DNA of 49,027 bases from Chloroflexota bacterium (GTDB lineage Bacteria > Chloroflexota > Dehalococcoidia > Lucifugimonadales > Lucifugimonadaceae). The first letter of the stretch is position 1, and the number at the start of each line of letters is the position of its first letter. Positions 16,551 through 22,856 of the stretch are shown piece after piece. The position numbers and the translations under genes are program-made. The notes below the pieces were generated by a model that worked only from the letters and a program-made list of their open reading frames with translations, searched no databases and was not told where the DNA came from. Where the stretch lies: contig JADFHP010000001.1 of assembly GCA_022567135.1 (NCBI GenBank), positions 1 through 49,027 of the forward strand, written 5' to 3'.

Positions 16551-17021
16551 TCAGCGGGGCGCTTCGGCGCCGACCGGGTGGCCCACTCCAGTATTCAGAT
16601 AGCGGTTGAGACTGCCCAGGAGGAAATGGTCCCAACCCGCCTCGCAAACTTCGTAGCAGTTTAGCCCCGGAACCAGGCCGTGGTGGTGGAAGATTACTTT
16701 GGTTCCTAGATCGTGCGGCTCTAGTTCCCATACGAGCCTGGTACCAAGCCACTCTTCGCGAATATTGTCAGGGGCCTCCTCCTGAACGTGATTCGCCTGG
16801 ACACACTCCAGTTCAACCAGCCGGTCTGGCACGAGCTTCAGGACTCGAAATCGCCAGAACGCGGGGCTCGGTTCAAACGTTACCGTGGATTCATCACCGA
16901 CGCTTGAGAGCGGTGCGCTCGATGCGGACCACCATCTATCGAAATCCTCGGTCACCGCTTTGAATACGACTTGAGGGTCGCACGGAACTATAAATGTGCG
17001 CGTGTAACTATCTGGCTTCAT
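16551..17021 (-). CDS. SRPBCC/AHSA1-family small protein
   Basis: 156 aa. The N-terminus ...TRTFIVPCDPQVVFKAVTEDFDRWWS and the overall size fit the Aha1/START-like family. Confidence 0.7.
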   Translation of the reverse strand: MKPDSYTRTFIVPCDPQVVFKAVTEDFDRWWSASSAPLSSVGDESTVTFEPSPAFWRFRVLKLVPDRLVELECVQANHVQEEAPDNIREEWLGTRLVWELEPHDLGTKVIFHHHGLVPGLNCYEVCEAGWDHFLLGSLNRYLNTGVGHPVGAEAPR

Positions 17022-17177
17022 GCTCGACTTTCCTTATGTGGCGGAAGATTTGCCACTATCTTGAACGTTCCCGCGGGCGGGAGTGAGCGCCTGCAAGGGG
17101 CAGATGCCGGAGACGCGTCACTCCCACCGCTGGGCGGCCTCCCTGCATCGCGGAAATACGGGCGGAGGACGCAAAAA

Positions 17178-17750
17178 CTAGGCCGACCAATTGGGGTCGC
17201 GGCCGCTCAGGCCGAGCGCCTTCTCGAAGGCTGATGCGCCATCGGAGATGCTGATCTCTGCGGCAAACGGCTTGCCTTCGCCGCGCGAGCCGTCGTTGCA
17301 GAGCTGCTGCGCGATTCCGAATATGGCCTCGCCAACGTCATCGCTGACTTGCAGGTCCTGGCCGGTTCCCTTCGCAAGGTCCCAGCCGTGGATCACCGTC
17401 TCCCACAGCGTTATCGAGGCGGCGAAGCTGGCGTCGGATTCGCCGGAGCCGAACTGCGTCTTGCCTTCTGTCGAGCCGGGCTCCTGCCAGGCGGCGACTG
17501 CGCCCTTGATCATGCCGGGGATCACAGAAGCGGGGTCGCTGCCTACGATGTCTGCGCCCGGTTCGCCTTCAGGAGCCTGCTTGCGAGCGGCCATGGCGGT
17601 CATTCCGTAGAAGCCGGCGATGTGGTTCGCAAGTCCCTTGACGTCGAACTCCGCGCACGGCGTAGCGCCGGAGAGCTGGCTTTCAGTTACGTTCGAGGCG
17701 ATTTCCGCGGTCGCACGCGAAGCCTTCGAAAACAGAGCGACGGTATCCAT
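17178..17750 (-). CDS. DinB/mycothiol-maleylpyruvate-isomerase-N-like metal-binding protein (TIGR03086-like)
   Basis: 190 aa. PCAEFDVKGLANHI...WETVIHGWDLAKGTG and the C-terminal ...ALGLSGRDPNW pattern match my recollection of this family. Confidence 0.65.
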   Translation of the reverse strand: MDTVALFSKASRATAEIASNVTESQLSGATPCAEFDVKGLANHIAGFYGMTAMAARKQAPEGEPGADIVGSDPASVIPGMIKGAVAAWQEPGSTEGKTQFGSGESDASFAASITLWETVIHGWDLAKGTGQDLQVSDDVGEAIFGIAQQLCNDGSRGEGKPFAAEISISDGASAFEKALGLSGRDPNWSA

Positions 17751-17853
17751 TTTGATTCCTCCCGAATCGGCCGGATGGCCTGATACCAGTTGGGCAGCGC
17801 GCGTGACGGCGCTCTAGTTCGAGCGCCATCCATTAACGGTGCCCAGTTATTAT

Positions 17854-17885
17854 GTAAGTAATATCTTACGTAAGTGATCGCTTAC
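17854..17885. promoter_or_regulatory. Operator-like tandem palindrome GTAAGT-N5-CTTAC x2
   Basis: GTAAGTaatatCTTACGTAAGTgatcgCTTAC lies about 105-135 nt upstream of the DinB-like gene in an AT-rich patch. The central CTTACGTAAG is a perfect 10-bp palindrome. Confidence 0.35.
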
Positions 17886-17915
17886 TGTCAATCTTCCTCC
17901 GTCGACCCCATCCAT

Positions 17916-18092
17916 CGTCACTCCGGCAACAGCCGGAATCCAGAGAGGGCCCCGGTGGTCAAATCAGGGTGCATTCGGAATGGACCGTGAACTCTTGGAG
18001 ATGTCTGCAATCGGCGCTTCTCGAATCGTAGCCGGGGGTGACTGGATTCTGGCTTCCGCCCTTCGACAGGCCCAGGAGAACCCAGAATGACG
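17916..18092. repeat. Repeat family C, second inverted pair (right unit has an expanded loop)
   Basis: 17916-17943 reads cgtcactccggcaacagccggaatccag. The reverse complement of 18043-18092 reads cgtcattctgg-[27-nt insert]-gccagaatccag. The flank gccgggg(g)tgactggattctggc is shared with locus 1. Confidence 0.7.
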
Positions 18093-18119
18093 AATATCTA
18101 ACCGGCGTCTCAGAAACTC

Positions 18120-19151
18120 CTACCCATCCCAGGCAGCGAGTTCCTCGTTGAACGCGAATACCTGGGGGAGGCCGCCGGAGTGGAGGAACATGATGGTGTC
18201 GTCTTTGCCGAACCGGCCATTTCGGATCTGGTCGATCAGGCCGGACATCGACTTTCCGGTGTAGTTGGGGTCGAGTATCACCGCCTCGGTCTGTGCGACG
18301 AGATGGATGGCCTCGAACGCGGCGTCTGTTGCCGCGGCGTAAGCGGGGCCGGAGAAGCCGTCGAGGATCTCGACATCGTCCGGCTCCAGCGTCACTGGCA
18401 GCTTCAGCAGCTCGGCAGCCTGCCTGGAGCGGGCGACCATCGTCTCGCGCAGCGCCTCATCGTCGGACGGGCTGTACTTGACCGCCGTTGCGGACCAGTC
18501 GAGGCCAAGATTGTTGGAAAACATCTTCAGGGCCGGCAGTGAGCGGCCGGTCAGGCCCCACAGGTGGACTCGGTCGACTCCGATGGCGTCCAGCTGCTCT
18601 TTCAGTTCGAGCCCGGCCTCGATGAAGGCGATCGTGCCCATGATTTCCGGGAACGAATCGTCGTTCAGGATGTACGGATTTCTCCCTTCCGAGCGAACTT
18701 TGTCGGCGAGTGAACGGGCGTACGCAGAAGCGTCTTCCGATTCGGGGATGCGATGAATCTCGCCACCCATAAGCTTCACCAACAGCAGGTTGCCCTGGAT
18801 GGGCCGATCGACCTCGCCGGTCGAGACCAGCAGGTACCGGATGCCTGCCTTCACGCAGCCCGCCGCCGCGACGCGTGCCTGGTTGGAGTGGAAGTTGTTG
18901 ATGTTGATGAGCGTGTCGAATCCGCCCTCGAGAACGTGTGCCATCTCGAACTCGAAGTGGCGCGACTTGTTGCCGCCGTATGCCAGCCCGGTGGCGTCGT
19001 CGCGCTTGACCAGGATGCGGGGGCCGCCGAGCCGTTCCGCCAGCTTCGTCCAGTCCTCGAGCGGTGTCGGGATGTGCGACCAGCGGATGCGCGGGACGGC
19101 GTTAAGGCTCTGCCGAATCTGCTCGACGGTGATTGCGGGGTGGTTGGTCAC
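18120..19151 (-). CDS. PLP-dependent enzyme of the ACC deaminase/D-cysteine desulfhydrase family (fold type II)
   Basis: 343 aa with a GTG start. The motif YGGNKSRHFEFEMAHVLEGG is GGNK with the PLP lysine. The protein ends ...FLHSGGL, as in this family. Confidence 0.8.
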   Translation of the reverse strand: MTNHPAITVEQIRQSLNAVPRIRWSHIPTPLEDWTKLAERLGGPRILVKRDDATGLAYGGNKSRHFEFEMAHVLEGGFDTLININNFHSNQARVAAAGCVKAGIRYLLVSTGEVDRPIQGNLLLVKLMGGEIHRIPESEDASAYARSLADKVRSEGRNPYILNDDSFPEIMGTIAFIEAGLELKEQLDAIGVDRVHLWGLTGRSLPALKMFSNNLGLDWSATAVKYSPSDDEALRETMVARSRQAAELLKLPVTLEPDDVEILDGFSGPAYAAATDAAFEAIHLVAQTEAVILDPNYTGKSMSGLIDQIRNGRFGKDDTIMFLHSGGLPQVFAFNEELAAWDG

Positions 19152-19712
19152 TTACTCTCCTGATACTGGCTGGCACTGGTGGAGATCGGAAATCCGACTG
19201 TCAAGCGCCTGCCGGCTCTCCTCAACGGATTGGCCTGTCGTATCGAGCCGGTTCTGCCCGGGCCAATCCAAACAAGCCTCGCGTTGTGTTCGCGTATATG
19301 TTTCCAGGACGTTTTTCTTCCGTTCCGAGGAACGCCCCAGAACGGCGCTGAGATCGGGCACCAGAACCACGAGAATCGGATTCAGGCCCATCAGCAACGG
19401 CTCCCACGTCACACGATACTCGTCGGGCAAGAACGTTGACTCGACGATGACATCGAAGCCATCTCGCAGGAAGTTCCGCGCCAGCGACACACATTGCCGG
19501 GCGGCCAGCTCGAACTGTTCCGTCTGCTCAGAACTGGATTGCTGGGGGTCTGCGAACCCTCCGATTATCATTTGCCTGACCTCGTCGAGGTCGATGTGTG
19601 CCGCCCGCGGCCGGTTTCCGCACCATGCCCGCGACAGTGTGGACTTGCCGGCGCCTGCCGGTCCCCCCAACAGCACCACAAGCGGACCGACGTGAGAGCT
19701 GCGCGCACTCAT
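19152..19712 (-). CDS. Small P-loop NTPase/kinase (AAA_33/gluconokinase/zeta-like)
   Basis: 186 aa with Walker A LLGGPAGAGKST and an aspartate-containing segment HIDLDEV. Its stop abuts the start of the downstream PLP gene (TAAGTG). Confidence 0.6.
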   Translation of the reverse strand: MSARSSHVGPLVVLLGGPAGAGKSTLSRAWCGNRPRAAHIDLDEVRQMIIGGFADPQQSSSEQTEQFELAARQCVSLARNFLRDGFDVIVESTFLPDEYRVTWEPLLMGLNPILVVLVPDLSAVLGRSSERKKNVLETYTRTQREACLDWPGQNRLDTTGQSVEESRQALDSRISDLHQCQPVSGE

Positions 19713-19725
19713 TTCATGACCCTGG

Positions 19726-20880
19726 TCATCCGCCGGAGGCCGCTTTGATCAGCTCTTCACGCACCCTCTCCGCAACGATCTCCAGTTCGTCGTCCTGGAT
19801 GTTGAGCGGGTCGACGATCAGCTCCCCAGTCTTTGGAATATTCATCAGAAAGATTCGCGGCGTACCGGCCATCAGCCGCCTGTGTATCTCCTCGAAATCC
19901 GGTCCCCGCCACTCGTCGCTGAACGTTATCGCCACCTGGGGTATGTAGTGGTCGCGATCGTGCTTGATGGACGCCACGACGCCGGGGATCTCCACGATCT
20001 GGTCCACGACCAGCTGCATCATCTGCCGGTATCTCTTCGTCTCCTCGGCTTCGTCTGTATTGACGAACTCTTCTACCGCGGCGACGAGGCCCGCCATCTC
20101 CTCCTTGGAGATTTTCTGCGCCCTTGCGATGTTGGCGTTCGGATAGTTGTTCAGCCGGGCGTACTCGACCCATTCGGGAGTGCCTGCCAGAATGCCCGTG
20201 CTCTGGGGTCCGCGAATCCCCTTGCCACCGCTGAAGCTGACCAGGTCTGCTCCCTCGTCAAGGAATTTCTTCAGATTCGATCGCGGCGGCAGCATGGACG
20301 CGGCATCGCAGAGTACCGGGAGGTCGTGGCGGTGTGCGATGTCTGCCAGTACCGGCTGCGGGACCGCAGTGTTGTCTTTGAACGGCGACTCGAGATGGAT
20401 GATGCCTGCCGTCTTTTCCGTAATCGCAGCCTCCACCTGCTCGGGCGTGCACGTTTCGCCGTCGCCGACTTCCACAAAGCGAGCGCCGGGCGCCAGATAA
20501 AGATGGTCGTATATAAAGCGGTGATGCTTCTGGATGATCAACTCGTTTGCCATACCGTCCGTATTCGGCAGCCGACTTATCTTGTCCGGATCGTCACGAG
20601 CGATGGCGGTTGCGGCCTGGACCACGAGGCCGCCCGAGGCGCCGCTCGTGATCGTTGCCGCCTCCGCGCCGATCATCCCGGCAATGAGCCGGCCGGCCTC
20701 GATGACGAACTCGTCGATGTTGAAGAATTTTCCGGACGCCTCTTCCATGGCTCTTATCGCCACGTCCCGCGGGCGGCTGCCGGAGTGTTTCGTGTTGGGC
20801 CCTCCGGCGTTTATCAGCGGCTCAATGCCAAGAAGGATCTGGATGTTTTCGCCGCCTGCTGCACTCCCTTTTGGGTACAT
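19726..20880 (-). CDS. SelA-like PLP enzyme (L-seryl-tRNA(Sec) selenium transferase-related, COG1921-type; not canonical SelA)
   Basis: 384 aa. ADLVSFSGGKGIRGPQSTGILAG parallels the SelA PLP-lysine region DLVxFSGDKLLGGPQAG. It lacks the SelA N-terminal tRNA-binding domain. Confidence 0.7.
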   Translation of the reverse strand: MYPKGSAAGGENIQILLGIEPLINAGGPNTKHSGSRPRDVAIRAMEEASGKFFNIDEFVIEAGRLIAGMIGAEAATITSGASGGLVVQAATAIARDDPDKISRLPNTDGMANELIIQKHHRFIYDHLYLAPGARFVEVGDGETCTPEQVEAAITEKTAGIIHLESPFKDNTAVPQPVLADIAHRHDLPVLCDAASMLPPRSNLKKFLDEGADLVSFSGGKGIRGPQSTGILAGTPEWVEYARLNNYPNANIARAQKISKEEMAGLVAAVEEFVNTDEAEETKRYRQMMQLVVDQIVEIPGVVASIKHDRDHYIPQVAITFSDEWRGPDFEEIHRRLMAGTPRIFLMNIPKTGELIVDPLNIQDDELEIVAERVREELIKAASGG

Positions 20881-21168
20881 GGGCTGGTTCTGTTACTCCT
20901 GTATGGGACCGGCCAGACCGGGACCTTCCGGTACTTGACGATCAAACCGGGGCAAAGTGCGGGTAGCCTAGCACCGGCTGATGGGCGTCTCAAGGCCGCC
21001 TCTTCGCCCTGGAGCCAGAGTCGATATCGAAGGGTCGCTACCCTTGCTACCGGGGGGGCGTCCCGAACCGCCCTGCTATCCTTTACGGCTGTTCATATAG
21101 TGTTGTTCAGGCGATCGTAGCGAATAGGCCGCAAGGACGGCGATTCCAGCGCAACCGGCAGAACTTTT

Positions 21169-21747
21169 ATGGCAATCGACGACATTACAACCGCGCCCGA
21201 CTCGGGGCCGCAGACCGCTTCAGGCATCGAGTCAGCTCCCGAAGATCCTGGGGAGGATGTGGTCGCGCGCCTGCAAGCGCTGCACGGCAGGCGGCTTGTG
21301 CTGACAGAGGAGCGCGTGACCGTGGACGGCGATGACGGTGGCTGGGGCGGCTGGTCCGTGGCGTTCCTGCCGCAGATCGCGGCTGTCCGGGTCTCGCCCG
21401 GCCGGAAAGAGCGCAGCTCGCTCGTCTGGGGCGTCCTTGGAGTCTTCGCCGCTATCGGCGTATGGATGGTGGCGAGCAACGACGCGGTGAGCACCATCGG
21501 CGGCATCGTGGTCGGAGCGATCTCGCTGGCGCTTCTGGCAGAGTTCTTCTTCAAGCCGCCCGATCTGAATATGCAGATCGTCCTGGGAACCGAGACTATT
21601 GATGTCGATATCAAGCGGTCGCAGGCAGATGAGGCGAGGCAGTTCGCAAATCTGATTCTTGAGACGCGCAGGAGTGCGCTTGCCGCGCCCCGTTCGGCCA
21701 ACGGCGCCGGGCCGGTAATCCAGGCGCCCCGTTTCCCGTTGCCTTGA
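21169..21747 (+). CDS. Hypothetical membrane protein (two central TM helices)
   Basis: 192 aa. The hydrophobic pair is LVWGVLGVFAAIGVWMV / IGGIVVGAISLALLAEFFF. No family recognised. Confidence 0.4.
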   Translation: MAIDDITTAPDSGPQTASGIESAPEDPGEDVVARLQALHGRRLVLTEERVTVDGDDGGWGGWSVAFLPQIAAVRVSPGRKERSSLVWGVLGVFAAIGVWMVASNDAVSTIGGIVVGAISLALLAEFFFKPPDLNMQIVLGTETIDVDIKRSQADEARQFANLILETRRSALAAPRSANGAGPVIQAPRFPLP

Positions 21748-21785
21748 ATTGGCCTCCGGCCTCAAGCTCGGGCTTGCGGGGGGAC

Positions 21786-22856
21786 TTACGCGGCGGCGCC
21801 TATGCGCAGGCCGGGATCCACGTCGAGTTCGTAATCGGATGCCTCTCCCCTGATGAGCCGCGGGTAGGCGGCGGCGGCGATCATCGCGCCGTTGTCCGTG
21901 CAGAGGATCGGCGGCGGAATGAACACGGACACGGTCGCTTCCGCCGTGAGCACCTGTCTGAGGCGCCGGTTGGCGGCAACCCCACCGGCAAGAATAATGG
22001 CGTTGCAGCCGTACTCATCCGCCGCGGCATTAGCCTTCCGGACGAGCACGTCTACTATCGACTCCTGGAGCTCATGGGATAGTCCCGCGATTTTTTCTTC
22101 ACTGGCTTCGCTGGCCGGTTCGTCGACTATCCCGGCTTCTTCTGCGCGCCTCAATAGCGCGGTTTTGAGGCCGCTGAAGCTGAAGTCATGGGTGCCGGGA
22201 ATCCATGCCCGCGGCAGCGGTTTCGTATCGGGGACCGCCCTGGCGACGCGTGAGATCTCCGGCCCGCCGGGATACGGCAGGCCAAGTATCCGGGCGCTCT
22301 TGTCGAACGCCTCGCCGGCGGCGTCATCGCGGGTTGCGCCGACGAGTTCGTAATCGGTCTCGCCCCGCATCAGCACGAGTTCGGTGTGGCCTCCGGAGAC
22401 GATGAGGCACATCAGCGGGAACGGCGGCTCCGTTCCCAGGTCGGCGTTGCCGTTTGTGTTGCCTTCTGGGTTGCCTTCTGGGTTGCCCTCCGCTAGCCAC
22501 GCCGCGCGGACATGGCCTTCCAGGTGGTTTACGCCGATCATCGGCACTCCCAGCGACGCCGCGAGGCCCTTGGCTGCGTTGAGGCCTACGATCAGCGAGC
22601 CGGCGAGTCCGGGCCCGTTGGTGACGGCTACGGCGTCGATGCCGGACCACGGAATGGCGGCGTCTTCGACGGCGGCGTGGAGCACCGGGAGGATCGCCTG
22701 AATGTGCTGCCTCGAGGCCAGCTCCGGGACTATGCCGCCGTGCCGGGAGTGCAGTTCCGCCTGCGAGGCGATCACGTTCGAGCGCAGGTCTACGCCATCG
22801 ACCACCACGGCAGCGGCGGTCTCGTCACAAGACGTTTCAATGCCCAGTACGTTCAT
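21786..22856 (-). CDS. tsaD: tRNA N6-adenosine threonylcarbamoyltransferase TsaD
   Basis: 356 aa. MNVLGIETSCDETAAAVV, HLEGH, VSGGHTEL and CTDNGAMIA are classic Kae1/TsaD motifs. It carries a GNPEGNPEGNTNGN insertion. Confidence 0.93.
   Translation of the reverse strand: MNVLGIETSCDETAAAVVVDGVDLRSNVIASQAELHSRHGGIVPELASRQHIQAILPVLHAAVEDAAIPWSGIDAVAVTNGPGLAGSLIVGLNAAKGLAASLGVPMIGVNHLEGHVRAAWLAEGNPEGNPEGNTNGNADLGTEPPFPLMCLIVSGGHTELVLMRGETDYELVGATRDDAAGEAFDKSARILGLPYPGGPEISRVARAVPDTKPLPRAWIPGTHDFSFSGLKTALLRRAEEAGIVDEPASEASEEKIAGLSHELQESIVDVLVRKANAAADEYGCNAIILAGGVAANRRLRQVLTAEATVSVFIPPPILCTDNGAMIAAAAYPRLIRGEASDYELDVDPGLRIGAAA

Follow-up and report, generated by a model that had tools for sequence, protein, structure and literature searches.

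What can be made of three tightly packed minus-strand genes in a Chloroflexota genome that encode a SelA-like enzyme, a small kinase and a second PLP enzyme, and does the kinase prepare a substrate that the other two deaminate? An earlier note on the window (the whole stretch of 49,027 nucleotides that was analysed) had proposed such a phosphorylation-dependent route behind a structured leader. The positions and the packing of the three open reading frames given there were exact: D and K are separated by 13 nt, and the TAA of K directly abuts the GTG of P (TAAGTG, gap of 0 nt; Table 1). In a near-identical metagenome contig, ATG stands in place of this GTG. Purifying selection acts on each of the three genes, with dN/dS values of 0.10-0.12 for D, 0.05-0.14 for P and, somewhat higher, 0.18-0.30 for K. 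D-K-P is a real three-gene operon of two PLP deaminating enzymes and a small kinase, the genes of which are presumably co-transcribed.

Table 1. Features of the D-K-P locus, in positions of the window.
Feature	Position	Strand	Length	Remark
DinB-like syntenic gene	17178-17750	minus		downstream of P
Variable spacer, P to DinB-like gene	17751-18119		369 nt	
P, fold-type-II PLP enzyme, D-cysteine desulfhydrase/CuyA/ACC-deaminase family	18120-19151	minus	343 aa	
K, AAA_33-family small P-loop kinase, chloramphenicol-phosphotransferase/gluconokinase-like fold	19152-19712	minus	186 aa	
D, DgaE-family (SelA-related) fold-type-I PLP enzyme	19726-20880	minus	384 aa	
Intergenic region shared by the operon and the divergent TM192 gene	20881-21168		288 nt	
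Putative operon promoter, TTGAGA-17 nt-TGC-TAGGCT (extended -10)	20965-20993	minus		conservation
Second conserved block, CTGCTATCCTTTA	21073-21085	plus		invariant columns T94-G106 of alignment A2
Divergent gene TM192, small protein	21169-21747	plus	192 aa	syntenic conservation

The spacer downstream of P measures about 87-160 nt in congeners versus 369 nt here, contains a promoter-like site at 17891-17863 according to a promoter scan, and its joint (17750 to 18120) is present in contigs from three runs. The scan for promoters and terminators found no such site on the minus strand within or just upstream of the operon. The TM192 protein, apparently a membrane protein, matched no Pfam family but shares 47-49% identity and a conserved hydrophobic core with the syntenic open reading frames of two congeners (G001 and G002) and 79% identity with that of G004. 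A search of the PADLOC library for anti-phage defence was null for this protein and for D, K and P. Pieces of D, K and P occur in contigs of a run that is labelled “metatranscriptomic WGA” and may be DNA. In run X2, the depth over K is lower than over its flanks, contig depths being unable to rank genes.

The family identities proposed in the earlier note were borne out by Pfam, NCBIfam and PDB matches: D is related to SelA and DgaE but lacks the N-terminal domain of the former, K is a P-loop kinase, and P has the PALP fold of ACC deaminases and D-cysteine desulfhydrases. D matches TIGR01437 over residues 17-375 (E = 5.5e-62) with 209.7 bits, which is under the curated cut-off of 385.3, and its best PDB matches are 7lc0 (DgaE; E = 2.9e-39) and 8t7j. 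By these scores, D is a homologue of the DgaE family that falls outside the curated TIGR01437 subfamily. As a canonical SelA, it is ruled out, as the earlier note had assumed, because it reaches only 46.1 bits against TIGR00474 (cut-off 267.9), with a match confined to core residues 131-294, and because the domain and family profiles find no N-terminal tRNA-binding domain in its 384 aa, SelA having about 455-463 aa. These results also bear on the idea that K acts on an aminoacyl-tRNA and D converts the product, in the manner of PSTK and SepSecS. The distant SelA homology of D is the one point in its favour; the missing tRNA-binding domain and the low SelA score speak against it, as do the lack of KTI12/PSTK among the Pfam and NCBIfam matches of K at E <= 0.01 and the dispensability of K in congeners, so that we give this reading practically no credence.

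To our knowledge, DgaE is the sole characterised member of the family of D. The two proteins are homologous over their full length and share the fold-type-I SelA-like architecture without a tRNA-binding domain as well as the PLP-lysine motif (FSGGKG in D, with K220 aligned with the DgaE lysine). They differ in the signature residues of DgaE: His162/His163, which lie in the proton-donor loop and are described as “strictly conserved in all DGL”, are P166/F167 in D, Arg226 is T234, and Arg301/Arg332/Arg346 of the phosphate cluster are Q315/M346/L359, aligned with high posterior probability. The phosphate site of Salmonella DgaE formed by Arg301/332/346 is itself a manual docking model (PMC9529869). 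The same residues are likewise missing in all 11 D orthologues and in all three paralogues that were checked. This loss of signature residues, together with a score of 184.8 bits against the DgaE model NF047797 (cut-off 600), rules out D as an ammonia-lyase acting on D-glucosaminate-6-phosphate. Because D has none of the proposed phosphate-binding residues, a “phosphorylate, then deaminate” scheme modelled on DgaE is unsupported and the main analogy of the earlier note is removed. The loci differ as well: a PTS and a DgaF aldolase are missing here, and the partners of D are a kinase of the P-loop type and an enzyme of the desulfhydrase family. The 2.6-Mb MAG holds four DgaE-family copies, and relatives give up to a dozen matches. 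A literature search on PDB 8T7J and on SAR202 together with SelA turned up nothing useful.

P passes the threshold of the PALP family (PF00291; E = 6.6e-30, 104.9 bits, cut-off 35) and aligns end to end with the DcyD/CuyA/ACC deaminase group, including the D-cysteine desulfhydrases 7ysk (4e-49) and 4d8t (6.5e-46), but stays under every curated cut-off within it: 219.4 bits versus 450 for CuyA (NF052482), 177.5 versus 289.4 for TIGR01275, 175.9 versus 429 for the best D-cysteine desulfhydrase equivalog model and 142.7 versus 392 for ACC deaminase (TIGR01274). Its motifs are GGNKSR, the lysine of which aligns with the PLP lysine of DcyD, SNQ, which keeps the Ser-Asn loop, a Tyr-Thr pair and HSGG; a Gln stands where DcyD has His80. 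A Glu/Leu pair reportedly marks ACC deaminase (attributed to Todorovic and Glick). P lacks this pair, carrying Tyr-Thr and HSGG instead of Tyr-Glu and the Leu of HLGG, which together with the low TIGR01274 score sets it apart from ACC deaminase. Judged from these motifs, the active-site pattern of P is of the desulfhydrase type and not of the ACC-deaminase type.

K passes the gathering score of Pfam AAA_33 (PF13671; E = 4.7e-16, 59.8 bits, gathering score 27) and keeps GGPAGxGKS, D43-x-x-R46, R127 and R131 as invariant residues (alignment A3). The best Foldseek matches of its AlphaFold model (pLDDT 86) are 2bdt, 1zp6, APS kinase, the tunicamycin-resistance protein TmrD, CPT and gluconate kinases. 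With BH3686 (2bdt), Atu3015 (1zp6) and CPT (1qhs), K shares the P-loop kinase fold (TM 0.68-0.79), Walker A, Asp-x-x-Arg and the lid arginines; identity to them is only 19-22%, none has a known PLP-type physiological partner, and 2bdt and 1zp6 are uncharacterised. Pfam CPT was not among the matches of K at E <= 0.01, gluconokinase sequence motifs are absent, and K is not of the KdgK (PfkB) type. As the zeta toxin of a toxin-antitoxin pair, it was rejected because the Zeta_toxin match (6e-9, 36 bits) is partial, covering residues 9-94 only, the gaps of 0 and 13 nt hold no small antitoxin ORF, and the PADLOC search was null.

The position of K in the operon was addressed by comparing gene order across the genus, which is sortase-TsaD-TM192-D-(K or X or K+X)-P-DinB-like. 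D and P occupy the same syntenic slot in five of five genomes, and the conserved core of the operon is therefore the pair of PLP enzymes, with a variable gene between them. The D-K-P form is found in this window and in two metagenome contigs (L029 and L040), a D-K-X-P form with 4-nt overlaps at K/X and X/P in L032 and one NCBI contig, and a D-X-P form in G001, G002, G003 and the contig G004:C198. A K homologue was not found in G001-G003 at E <= 1e-5 (MAGs 79-92% complete), nor is K present at the D-X junction of G004:C198, and its presence differs even among near-identical strains. The three genes are therefore not co-conserved, which, like the unrelated neighbours of the wider K family, is among the findings that the earlier note had named as refuting its proposal: X takes the place of K in G001-G003 and on the G004 contig, and outside the genus D orthologues have none of K, X and P within 1.5 kb. 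In the clade of K sequences with at least 62% identity, K does directly follow D in all six contigs with a visible neighbour. Since these DgaE-like orthologues do not adjoin P, the D-P pair itself is young. The space between D and P is a fixed slot filled by the accessory genes K and/or X, and K is an intact but accessory, presence/absence-polymorphic gene, an optional and recently added part of the operon.

X encodes a 390-aa hydrolase with a GH-A-fold TIM barrel. For its model (pLDDT 86), the top 50 PDB matches are without exception glycosidases of clan GH-A. At the end of beta-4 stands an Asn-Glu pair, of which N224 is invariant and E225 occurs in at least 90% of sequences, and at the end of beta-7 an invariant E316. 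X is probably a glycosidase, and its role would be to release the substrate. The neighbours of an X homologue in G018 include a Gfo/Idh/MocA oxidoreductase, a P paralogue and an MFS transporter; the X family has no recurrent partner in two large genomes and stands in unrelated contexts outside the lineage. A comparison of the K-P and X-P junctions, made with regard to a possible X deletion giving D-K-P, revealed only a vague likeness.

K might be a mere passenger, a CPT-like kinase that modifies xenobiotics or antibiotics, is exchanged between strains and has no part in the chemistry of D and P; it would have settled in a slot where insertions are tolerated and expression is good. Relatives of K at 29-61% identity are stand-alone genes, close to MarR regulators, GNAT acetyltransferases or transposases in the five contigs with annotated neighbours, and below about 62% identity D, X and P were absent within about 4 kb in all of the 49 further loci scanned. 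The wider K family thus has unrelated neighbours, which weakens the partnership envisaged in the earlier note. Source databases label these relatives chloramphenicol 3-O-phosphotransferase or predicted kinase, and the structural neighbours CPT and TmrD, the polymorphism between near-identical strains and the dN/dS slightly above that of D and P point the same way. Furthermore, the dS values for G000 versus L029 are 0.88 (K) and 0.12 (D), a sharp recombination breakpoint falls on the D/K boundary (the 5' edge of K), and the K alleles are far older than the flanking genes. In composition, K (GC/GC3 of 0.61/0.70) carries no clear foreign signature; D and P have values of 0.60/0.76 and 0.64/0.84. 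Against a passenger stand the invariable place after D in the clade of at least 62% identity, tight or overlapping junctions that suggest translational coupling, purifying selection in both the three- and the four-gene forms, and a locus with no regulator, resistance context or PADLOC match. We consider this a serious though less probable alternative.

A further reading keeps the order of the earlier note: the substrate of K would be a hydroxy-amino acid or an amino-sugar acid, from which, once it is phosphorylated, D and/or P would eliminate phosphate or water together with ammonia, by phospho-lyase logic or as a non-PTS version of the dga route. Pairs of a kinase and a PLP phospho-lyase that follows it are known for hydroxylysine and for ethanolamine. 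The tight D-K adjacency recurs in six contigs, and the fold of K is that of an intact small-molecule kinase with gluconate kinases among its structural neighbours. It is difficult to reconcile with the absence from D of all three arginines of the DgaE phosphate site and of the His-His pair, and with the three congeneric species that keep D and P without a detectable K homologue. Moreover, K-containing and K-less haplotypes share 92-97% identity in D and P, which therefore show no sign of co-adaptation to K. Overall we judge this route unlikely. A specific form of it, to which we assign an even smaller chance, has K phosphorylate a D-amino acid or amino-aldonate, supplied from a glycoside by X, at its beta- or gamma-hydroxyl, and D or P eliminate phosphate and ammonia via a phosphate site other than that of DgaE; if true, this new bacterial pair of a kinase and a PLP phospho-lyase would constitute an undescribed activation-dependent route of deamination.

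The region upstream of D had been described as a GC-rich, stem-rich leader of about 290 nt that matched no riboswitch class. The gap of 288 nt exists, but it is shared with the conserved, divergently transcribed TM192 gene, its reading as an untranslated leader is unsupported, and it is not unusually rich in stems, its minimum free energy being equal to that of dinucleotide-shuffled sequences (z = -0.02), 94 of 200 of which fold equally well or better. A scan of 17000-22000 with Rfam 15 at E <= 10 gave no match in the region, the two chance-level sRNA matches both lying outside it. We also found no meaningful repeats. The length among congeners lies between about 179 nt (in G001) and 288 nt, and most of the region is unconserved: compared with L029, the block 20999-20940 is 95% identical, whereas 21119-21000 is only 52-63% identical with gaps, although the D genes are 96% identical. 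A structured cis-regulatory leader of an unknown riboswitch class could draw on the length, the GC-richness and the two short blocks conserved in the genus, but these blocks resemble -35/-10 elements, and such a leader is very improbable. In the first block, five genomes of the genus agree in every base of TTGAGA and TGC-TAGGCT but not in the flanks (alignment A2). Judged by this conservation, the block is probably the operon promoter, which would leave a 5' UTR of about 78 nt; a simple scan for sigma-70 sites did not pick it out. The second block may belong to the divergent gene, as its extended -10 element. The region is a shared promoter region and not a demonstrated leader, and nothing in it indicates a riboswitch.

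The reading that we favour, with a probability of roughly 45%, is that of a lineage-specific catabolic operon with a core of two PLP lyases, an accessory slot, deamination preceding phosphorylation and a conserved promoter. The operon would be a chromosomal unit of an uncultured genus of marine-sediment Chloroflexota, probably transcribed from the promoter about 78 nt upstream of D. D, a paralogue within the DgaE family, and P, of the D-cysteine-desulfhydrase/CuyA family, would act as PLP-dependent eliminating lyases, each most likely converting an alpha-amino acid with a beta-leaving group to a 2-oxo acid and ammonia; amino-aldonates (amino-sugar acids) or beta-substituted D-amino acids are candidate substrates, which X would release from a glycoside where it is present. 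Because D has neither the His-His pair nor the arginines that make up the phosphate cluster of DgaE, deamination would most likely take place on the unphosphorylated substrate, and K, if it belongs to the pathway, would more likely phosphorylate the product or a side hydroxyl.

Such an order is known from the ong pathway for oxidised chitin (GlcNAc1A) of Pseudoalteromonas prydzensis, in which unphosphorylated D-glucosaminate is deaminated before a kinase acts (PMC9537276). By analogy only, the glycosidase OngA would correspond to X of the four-gene form, the PLP deamination by OngC to D or P, and KdgK to K. The proteins are all unrelated, OngC being a fold-type-III enzyme and KdgK a PfkB kinase, and the D-K-P locus has no deacetylase, RidA, transporter or regulator; an aldolase is missing from the operon as well. 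The genome carries an eda-pfkB pair elsewhere that could take 2-keto-3-deoxy-aldonates, and with a PfkB kinase adjoining eda, K is not obviously needed. As to the weak points of the favoured pathway, D might bind phosphate via other residues, and the scheme gives no reason for P to stand beside D.

The operon is real but fairly ordinary, a lineage-specific catabolic unit with nothing new in principle as regards regulation or mechanism. These marine Dehalococcoidia have a strongly expanded set of DgaE-family enzymes, and no copy examined keeps the signature residues of DgaE. D, K and P offer a small, testable set of enzymes for the nitrogen-containing compounds that abundant sediment bacteria deaminate, and their locus shows how an operon is assembled by the swapping of accessory genes within a fixed slot.

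In the window the locus consists of three minus-strand genes: D, a DgaE-family (SelA-related) PLP enzyme, K, an AAA_33 P-loop kinase, and P, a PLP enzyme of the D-cysteine desulfhydrase/CuyA family. The tight packing claimed in the earlier note was recovered, with 13 nt between D and K and the TAA stop of K directly abutting the GTG start of P, and profile and structure-database matches bore out the proposed families (DgaE/SelA-related, P-loop kinase and PALP enzyme, respectively). The GTG start of P is supported because L029, a near-identical metagenome contig, has ATG at the same position. The MAG holding the window as its contig 94 (G000) comprises 2.6 Mb and is 83% complete, and DNA near-identical to the window is present in marine-sediment metagenomes of ten studies.

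Features of the locus and related genes (positions in the window unless a contig or locus is named)
Feature	Position	Strand	Description
D	19726-20880	-	384 aa, ATG start
K	19152-19712	-	186 aa, ATG start
P	18120-19151	-	343 aa, GTG start
X	L004:2597-3787 (G001)		390 aa; homologues in L003, L005, L013, L032; not in window
192-aa protein gene	21169-21747	+	conserved, no Pfam family, conserved hydrophobic core
Conserved block 1	20993-20965	- (operon strand)	TTGAGA, 17 nt, TGC-TAGGCT; putative promoter element
Conserved block 2	21085-21073		reads TGCTATCCT on other strand; invariant; putative promoter element
DgaE-family copy in G000	C21:811-1905
DgaE-family copy in G000	C49:15053-16165
DgaE-family copy in G000	C153:9094-10185

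Across the genus the gene order is sortase, TsaD, the 192-aa protein, D, a variable slot, P and a DinB-like gene. The slot holds K alone in the window, in L029 and in a further metagenome contig (L040), and X in three congeneric genomes (G001, G002 and G003) and on contig C198 of a fourth, G004. Another G004 contig (C172) carries D and then K and ends there; as D–K and D–X junctions both occur in G004, the presence or absence of K is polymorphic within one species-level population. K followed by X fills the slot in metagenome contig L032 and in one NCBI contig, with 4-nt overlaps at K/X and X/P. No K homologue was found in G001–G003 at E ≤ 1e-5 and no X homologue in G000, these MAGs being incomplete. 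Outside the genus, D orthologues (60–67% identity) have no K, X or P inside 1.5 kb. On the kinase side, we surveyed 58 loci taken from metagenome and genome collections: D or P was nearby only in the two with K of at least 70% identity, and 49 others had neither. The three genes of the earlier note, which had named co-conservation as its test, are thus not co-conserved, as K is swapped for X in congeners and its distant relatives lie elsewhere; the conserved unit is the pair of beta-eliminating PLP lyases, D and P, to which X and K are accessory. Five distant K relatives, inspected gene by gene, sit near MarR regulators, GNAT acetyltransferases or transposases, and Dehalococcoidia MAGs are the main hosts of kinase relatives. 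The main rival reading takes K for a detoxifying kinase, unrelated to D and P, that rides in a permissive slot; we think this unlikely, if still a serious contender.

D, K and P are all under purifying selection (dN/dS 0.10–0.12, 0.18–0.30 and 0.05–0.14, respectively), and D and K have differing histories. A sharp recombination breakpoint lies at the D/K gene boundary: between G000 and L029, nucleotide identity falls from 92–100% to 67–82% exactly at the D stop/K start (window 19739), and the low identity runs through K into the 5' end of P. In the same comparison dS is 0.12 for D and 0.88 for K; the K alleles greatly predate their flanks. One contig of sequencing run X4 departs from the window at 19129, barely within P's 5' end, and goes on with ~30 letters that resemble the 3' end of X and not K, which weakly hints that this sediment population also includes a variant with an X–P junction.

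P and the DinB-like gene are separated by a spacer of 369 nt (17751–18119) that contigs from three sediment metagenomes bypass or replace, with the joint at 17750->18120; the corresponding spacer in congeners is only ~87–160 nt long. The palindromic repeat units in the window's spacer give it the look of an inserted repeat element. The SRPBCC/AHSA1-like gene (16551–17021) finds no match where G004 and G001 are syntenic and was apparently inserted in the window genome only; in both congeners the DinB-like gene is close to a 2-hydroxyacid dehydrogenase region.

The Pfam SelA match of D is limited to the core, and DgaE-family models span its full length (TIGR01437, E = 5.5e-62; NF047797, E = 2.2e-54), with scores far under the curated cut-offs of both. 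The closest solved structures are Salmonella DgaE (7lc0), a DGL (an ammonia-lyase acting on D-glucosaminate-6-phosphate), and 8t7j. In DGL, His162/His163 are stated to be strictly conserved across all sequences, and manual docking assigned Arg301/332/346 to the phosphate of the substrate and Arg226 to its carboxylate (PMC9529869). D retains the PLP lysine (K220). In high-confidence columns of the HMMER alignment to 7lc0, the histidines correspond to P166/F167, the three phosphate-site arginines to Q315/M346/L359 and Arg226 to T234; 8t7j, unlike D, retains the three arginines. As the His-His and arginine positions are replaced, D is predicted not to be a DGL and to lack a DGL-type phosphate site. 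The same signature residues are lost in 11 D orthologues and in the three other G000 paralogues, and neither the His-His nor the arginine-cluster signature occurs in any lineage copy examined. The family is strongly expanded in the lineage: G000 has four copies, and a relative shows as many as twelve matches, often in tandem. The phosphorylation-dependent deamination proposed earlier thereby loses its main analogy, that with DgaE; we hold phosphorylation followed by deamination itself to be improbable.

K belongs to the AAA_33 kinases and matches Zeta_toxin in part. Its Walker A motif (GGPAGxGKS), Asp43-x-x-Arg46 and lid arginines do not vary across 13 relatives. The structures nearest to its model (pLDDT 86) are the uncharacterised structural-genomics kinases 2bdt and 1zp6, followed by APS kinase, the tunicamycin-resistance protein TmrD, chloramphenicol phosphotransferase and gluconate kinases; on account of these neighbours K is modelled as a small-molecule kinase fold. 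The more speculative suggestion that K and the SelA-fold enzyme form a tRNA-dependent pair resembling PSTK/SepSecS is effectively excluded.

Among curated models P comes closest to cysteate sulfo-lyase CuyA, XcbE and D-cysteine desulfhydrase (all below cut-off), and among structures to D-cysteine desulfhydrases. Its PLP lysine lies within GGNKSR, and it has the desulfhydrase-type Tyr-Thr pair, not the Tyr-Glu of ACC deaminase. X has neither a Pfam match nor, by sequence, a PDB match; its family, for which Pfam has no model, counts at least 7,986 proteins, named only 'hypothetical' and widespread in Chloroflexota, Gammaproteobacteria and Latescibacteria. The top 50 PDB matches of its model (pLDDT 86) are exclusively clan GH-A glycosidases. 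N224, which is invariant, and E225, kept by at least 90% of sequences, form an Asn-Glu pair that ends strand 4, and an invariant Glu ends strand 7, so X, as modelled, is probably a TIM barrel of clan GH-A that keeps the catalytic Asn-Glu and Glu and represents an unclassified glycoside-hydrolase family. In a genome of another genus (G018:C3:71000-83000; L036), an X homologue, a Gfo/Idh/MocA oxidoreductase, a P paralogue and an MFS transporter stand together, adjoining an amidase, a cluster that could be a related module for sugars or amino sugars.

Upstream of D, 20881–21168 had been taken for a structured 288-nt leader. It is a divergent intergenic region, because the plus-strand gene beyond it is real: the 192-aa gene invariably separates tsaD from the operon, to which it runs opposite, and its product, apparently a membrane protein judging by sequence, is 47–49% identical in the syntenic ORFs of G001 and G002, with the hydrophobic core conserved, and 79% in G004. 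A riboswitch is effectively excluded, since the minimum free energy equals the shuffle mean (-103.5 versus -103.4 kcal/mol; z = -0.02), the suggested Rfam check returned no match at E ≤ 10, and spacer length varies from ~179 nt (G001) to 288 nt across five genus genomes, with only two short blocks invariant. Further against a structured leader, L029, with a D gene 96% identical, matches the window at 95% over 20999–20940 and at only 52–63%, with indels, over 21119–21000. The two blocks look like promoter elements and may be divergent promoters; with block 1 as operon promoter, the 5' UTR would measure ~78 nt. A simple sigma-70 scan did not flag this proposed promoter.

The most economical picture, to which we give a probability of roughly 0.45, is that the operon breaks down an amino-sugar-acid-like or beta-substituted D-amino-acid-like compound. 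X would release the compound from a glycoside, D and/or P would convert it to a 2-oxo acid by deamination, and K, if part of the pathway, would act after deamination or on another hydroxyl. Deamination ahead of the kinase step is likewise found in the ong pathway, where D-glucosaminate is deaminated unphosphorylated and KdgK acts later (PMC9537276). Elsewhere in G000 (C77:459-2122), the gene immediately after that of a KDPG/KHG aldolase encodes a PfkB sugar kinase; this eda-kdgK-like pair could take 2-keto-3-deoxy-aldonate products. D, K, P and X are new members of known families, and their D-K(-X)-P combination, of which a limited literature search found no report, is confined to one genus; it represents a new variation on an already known type of catabolic operon.
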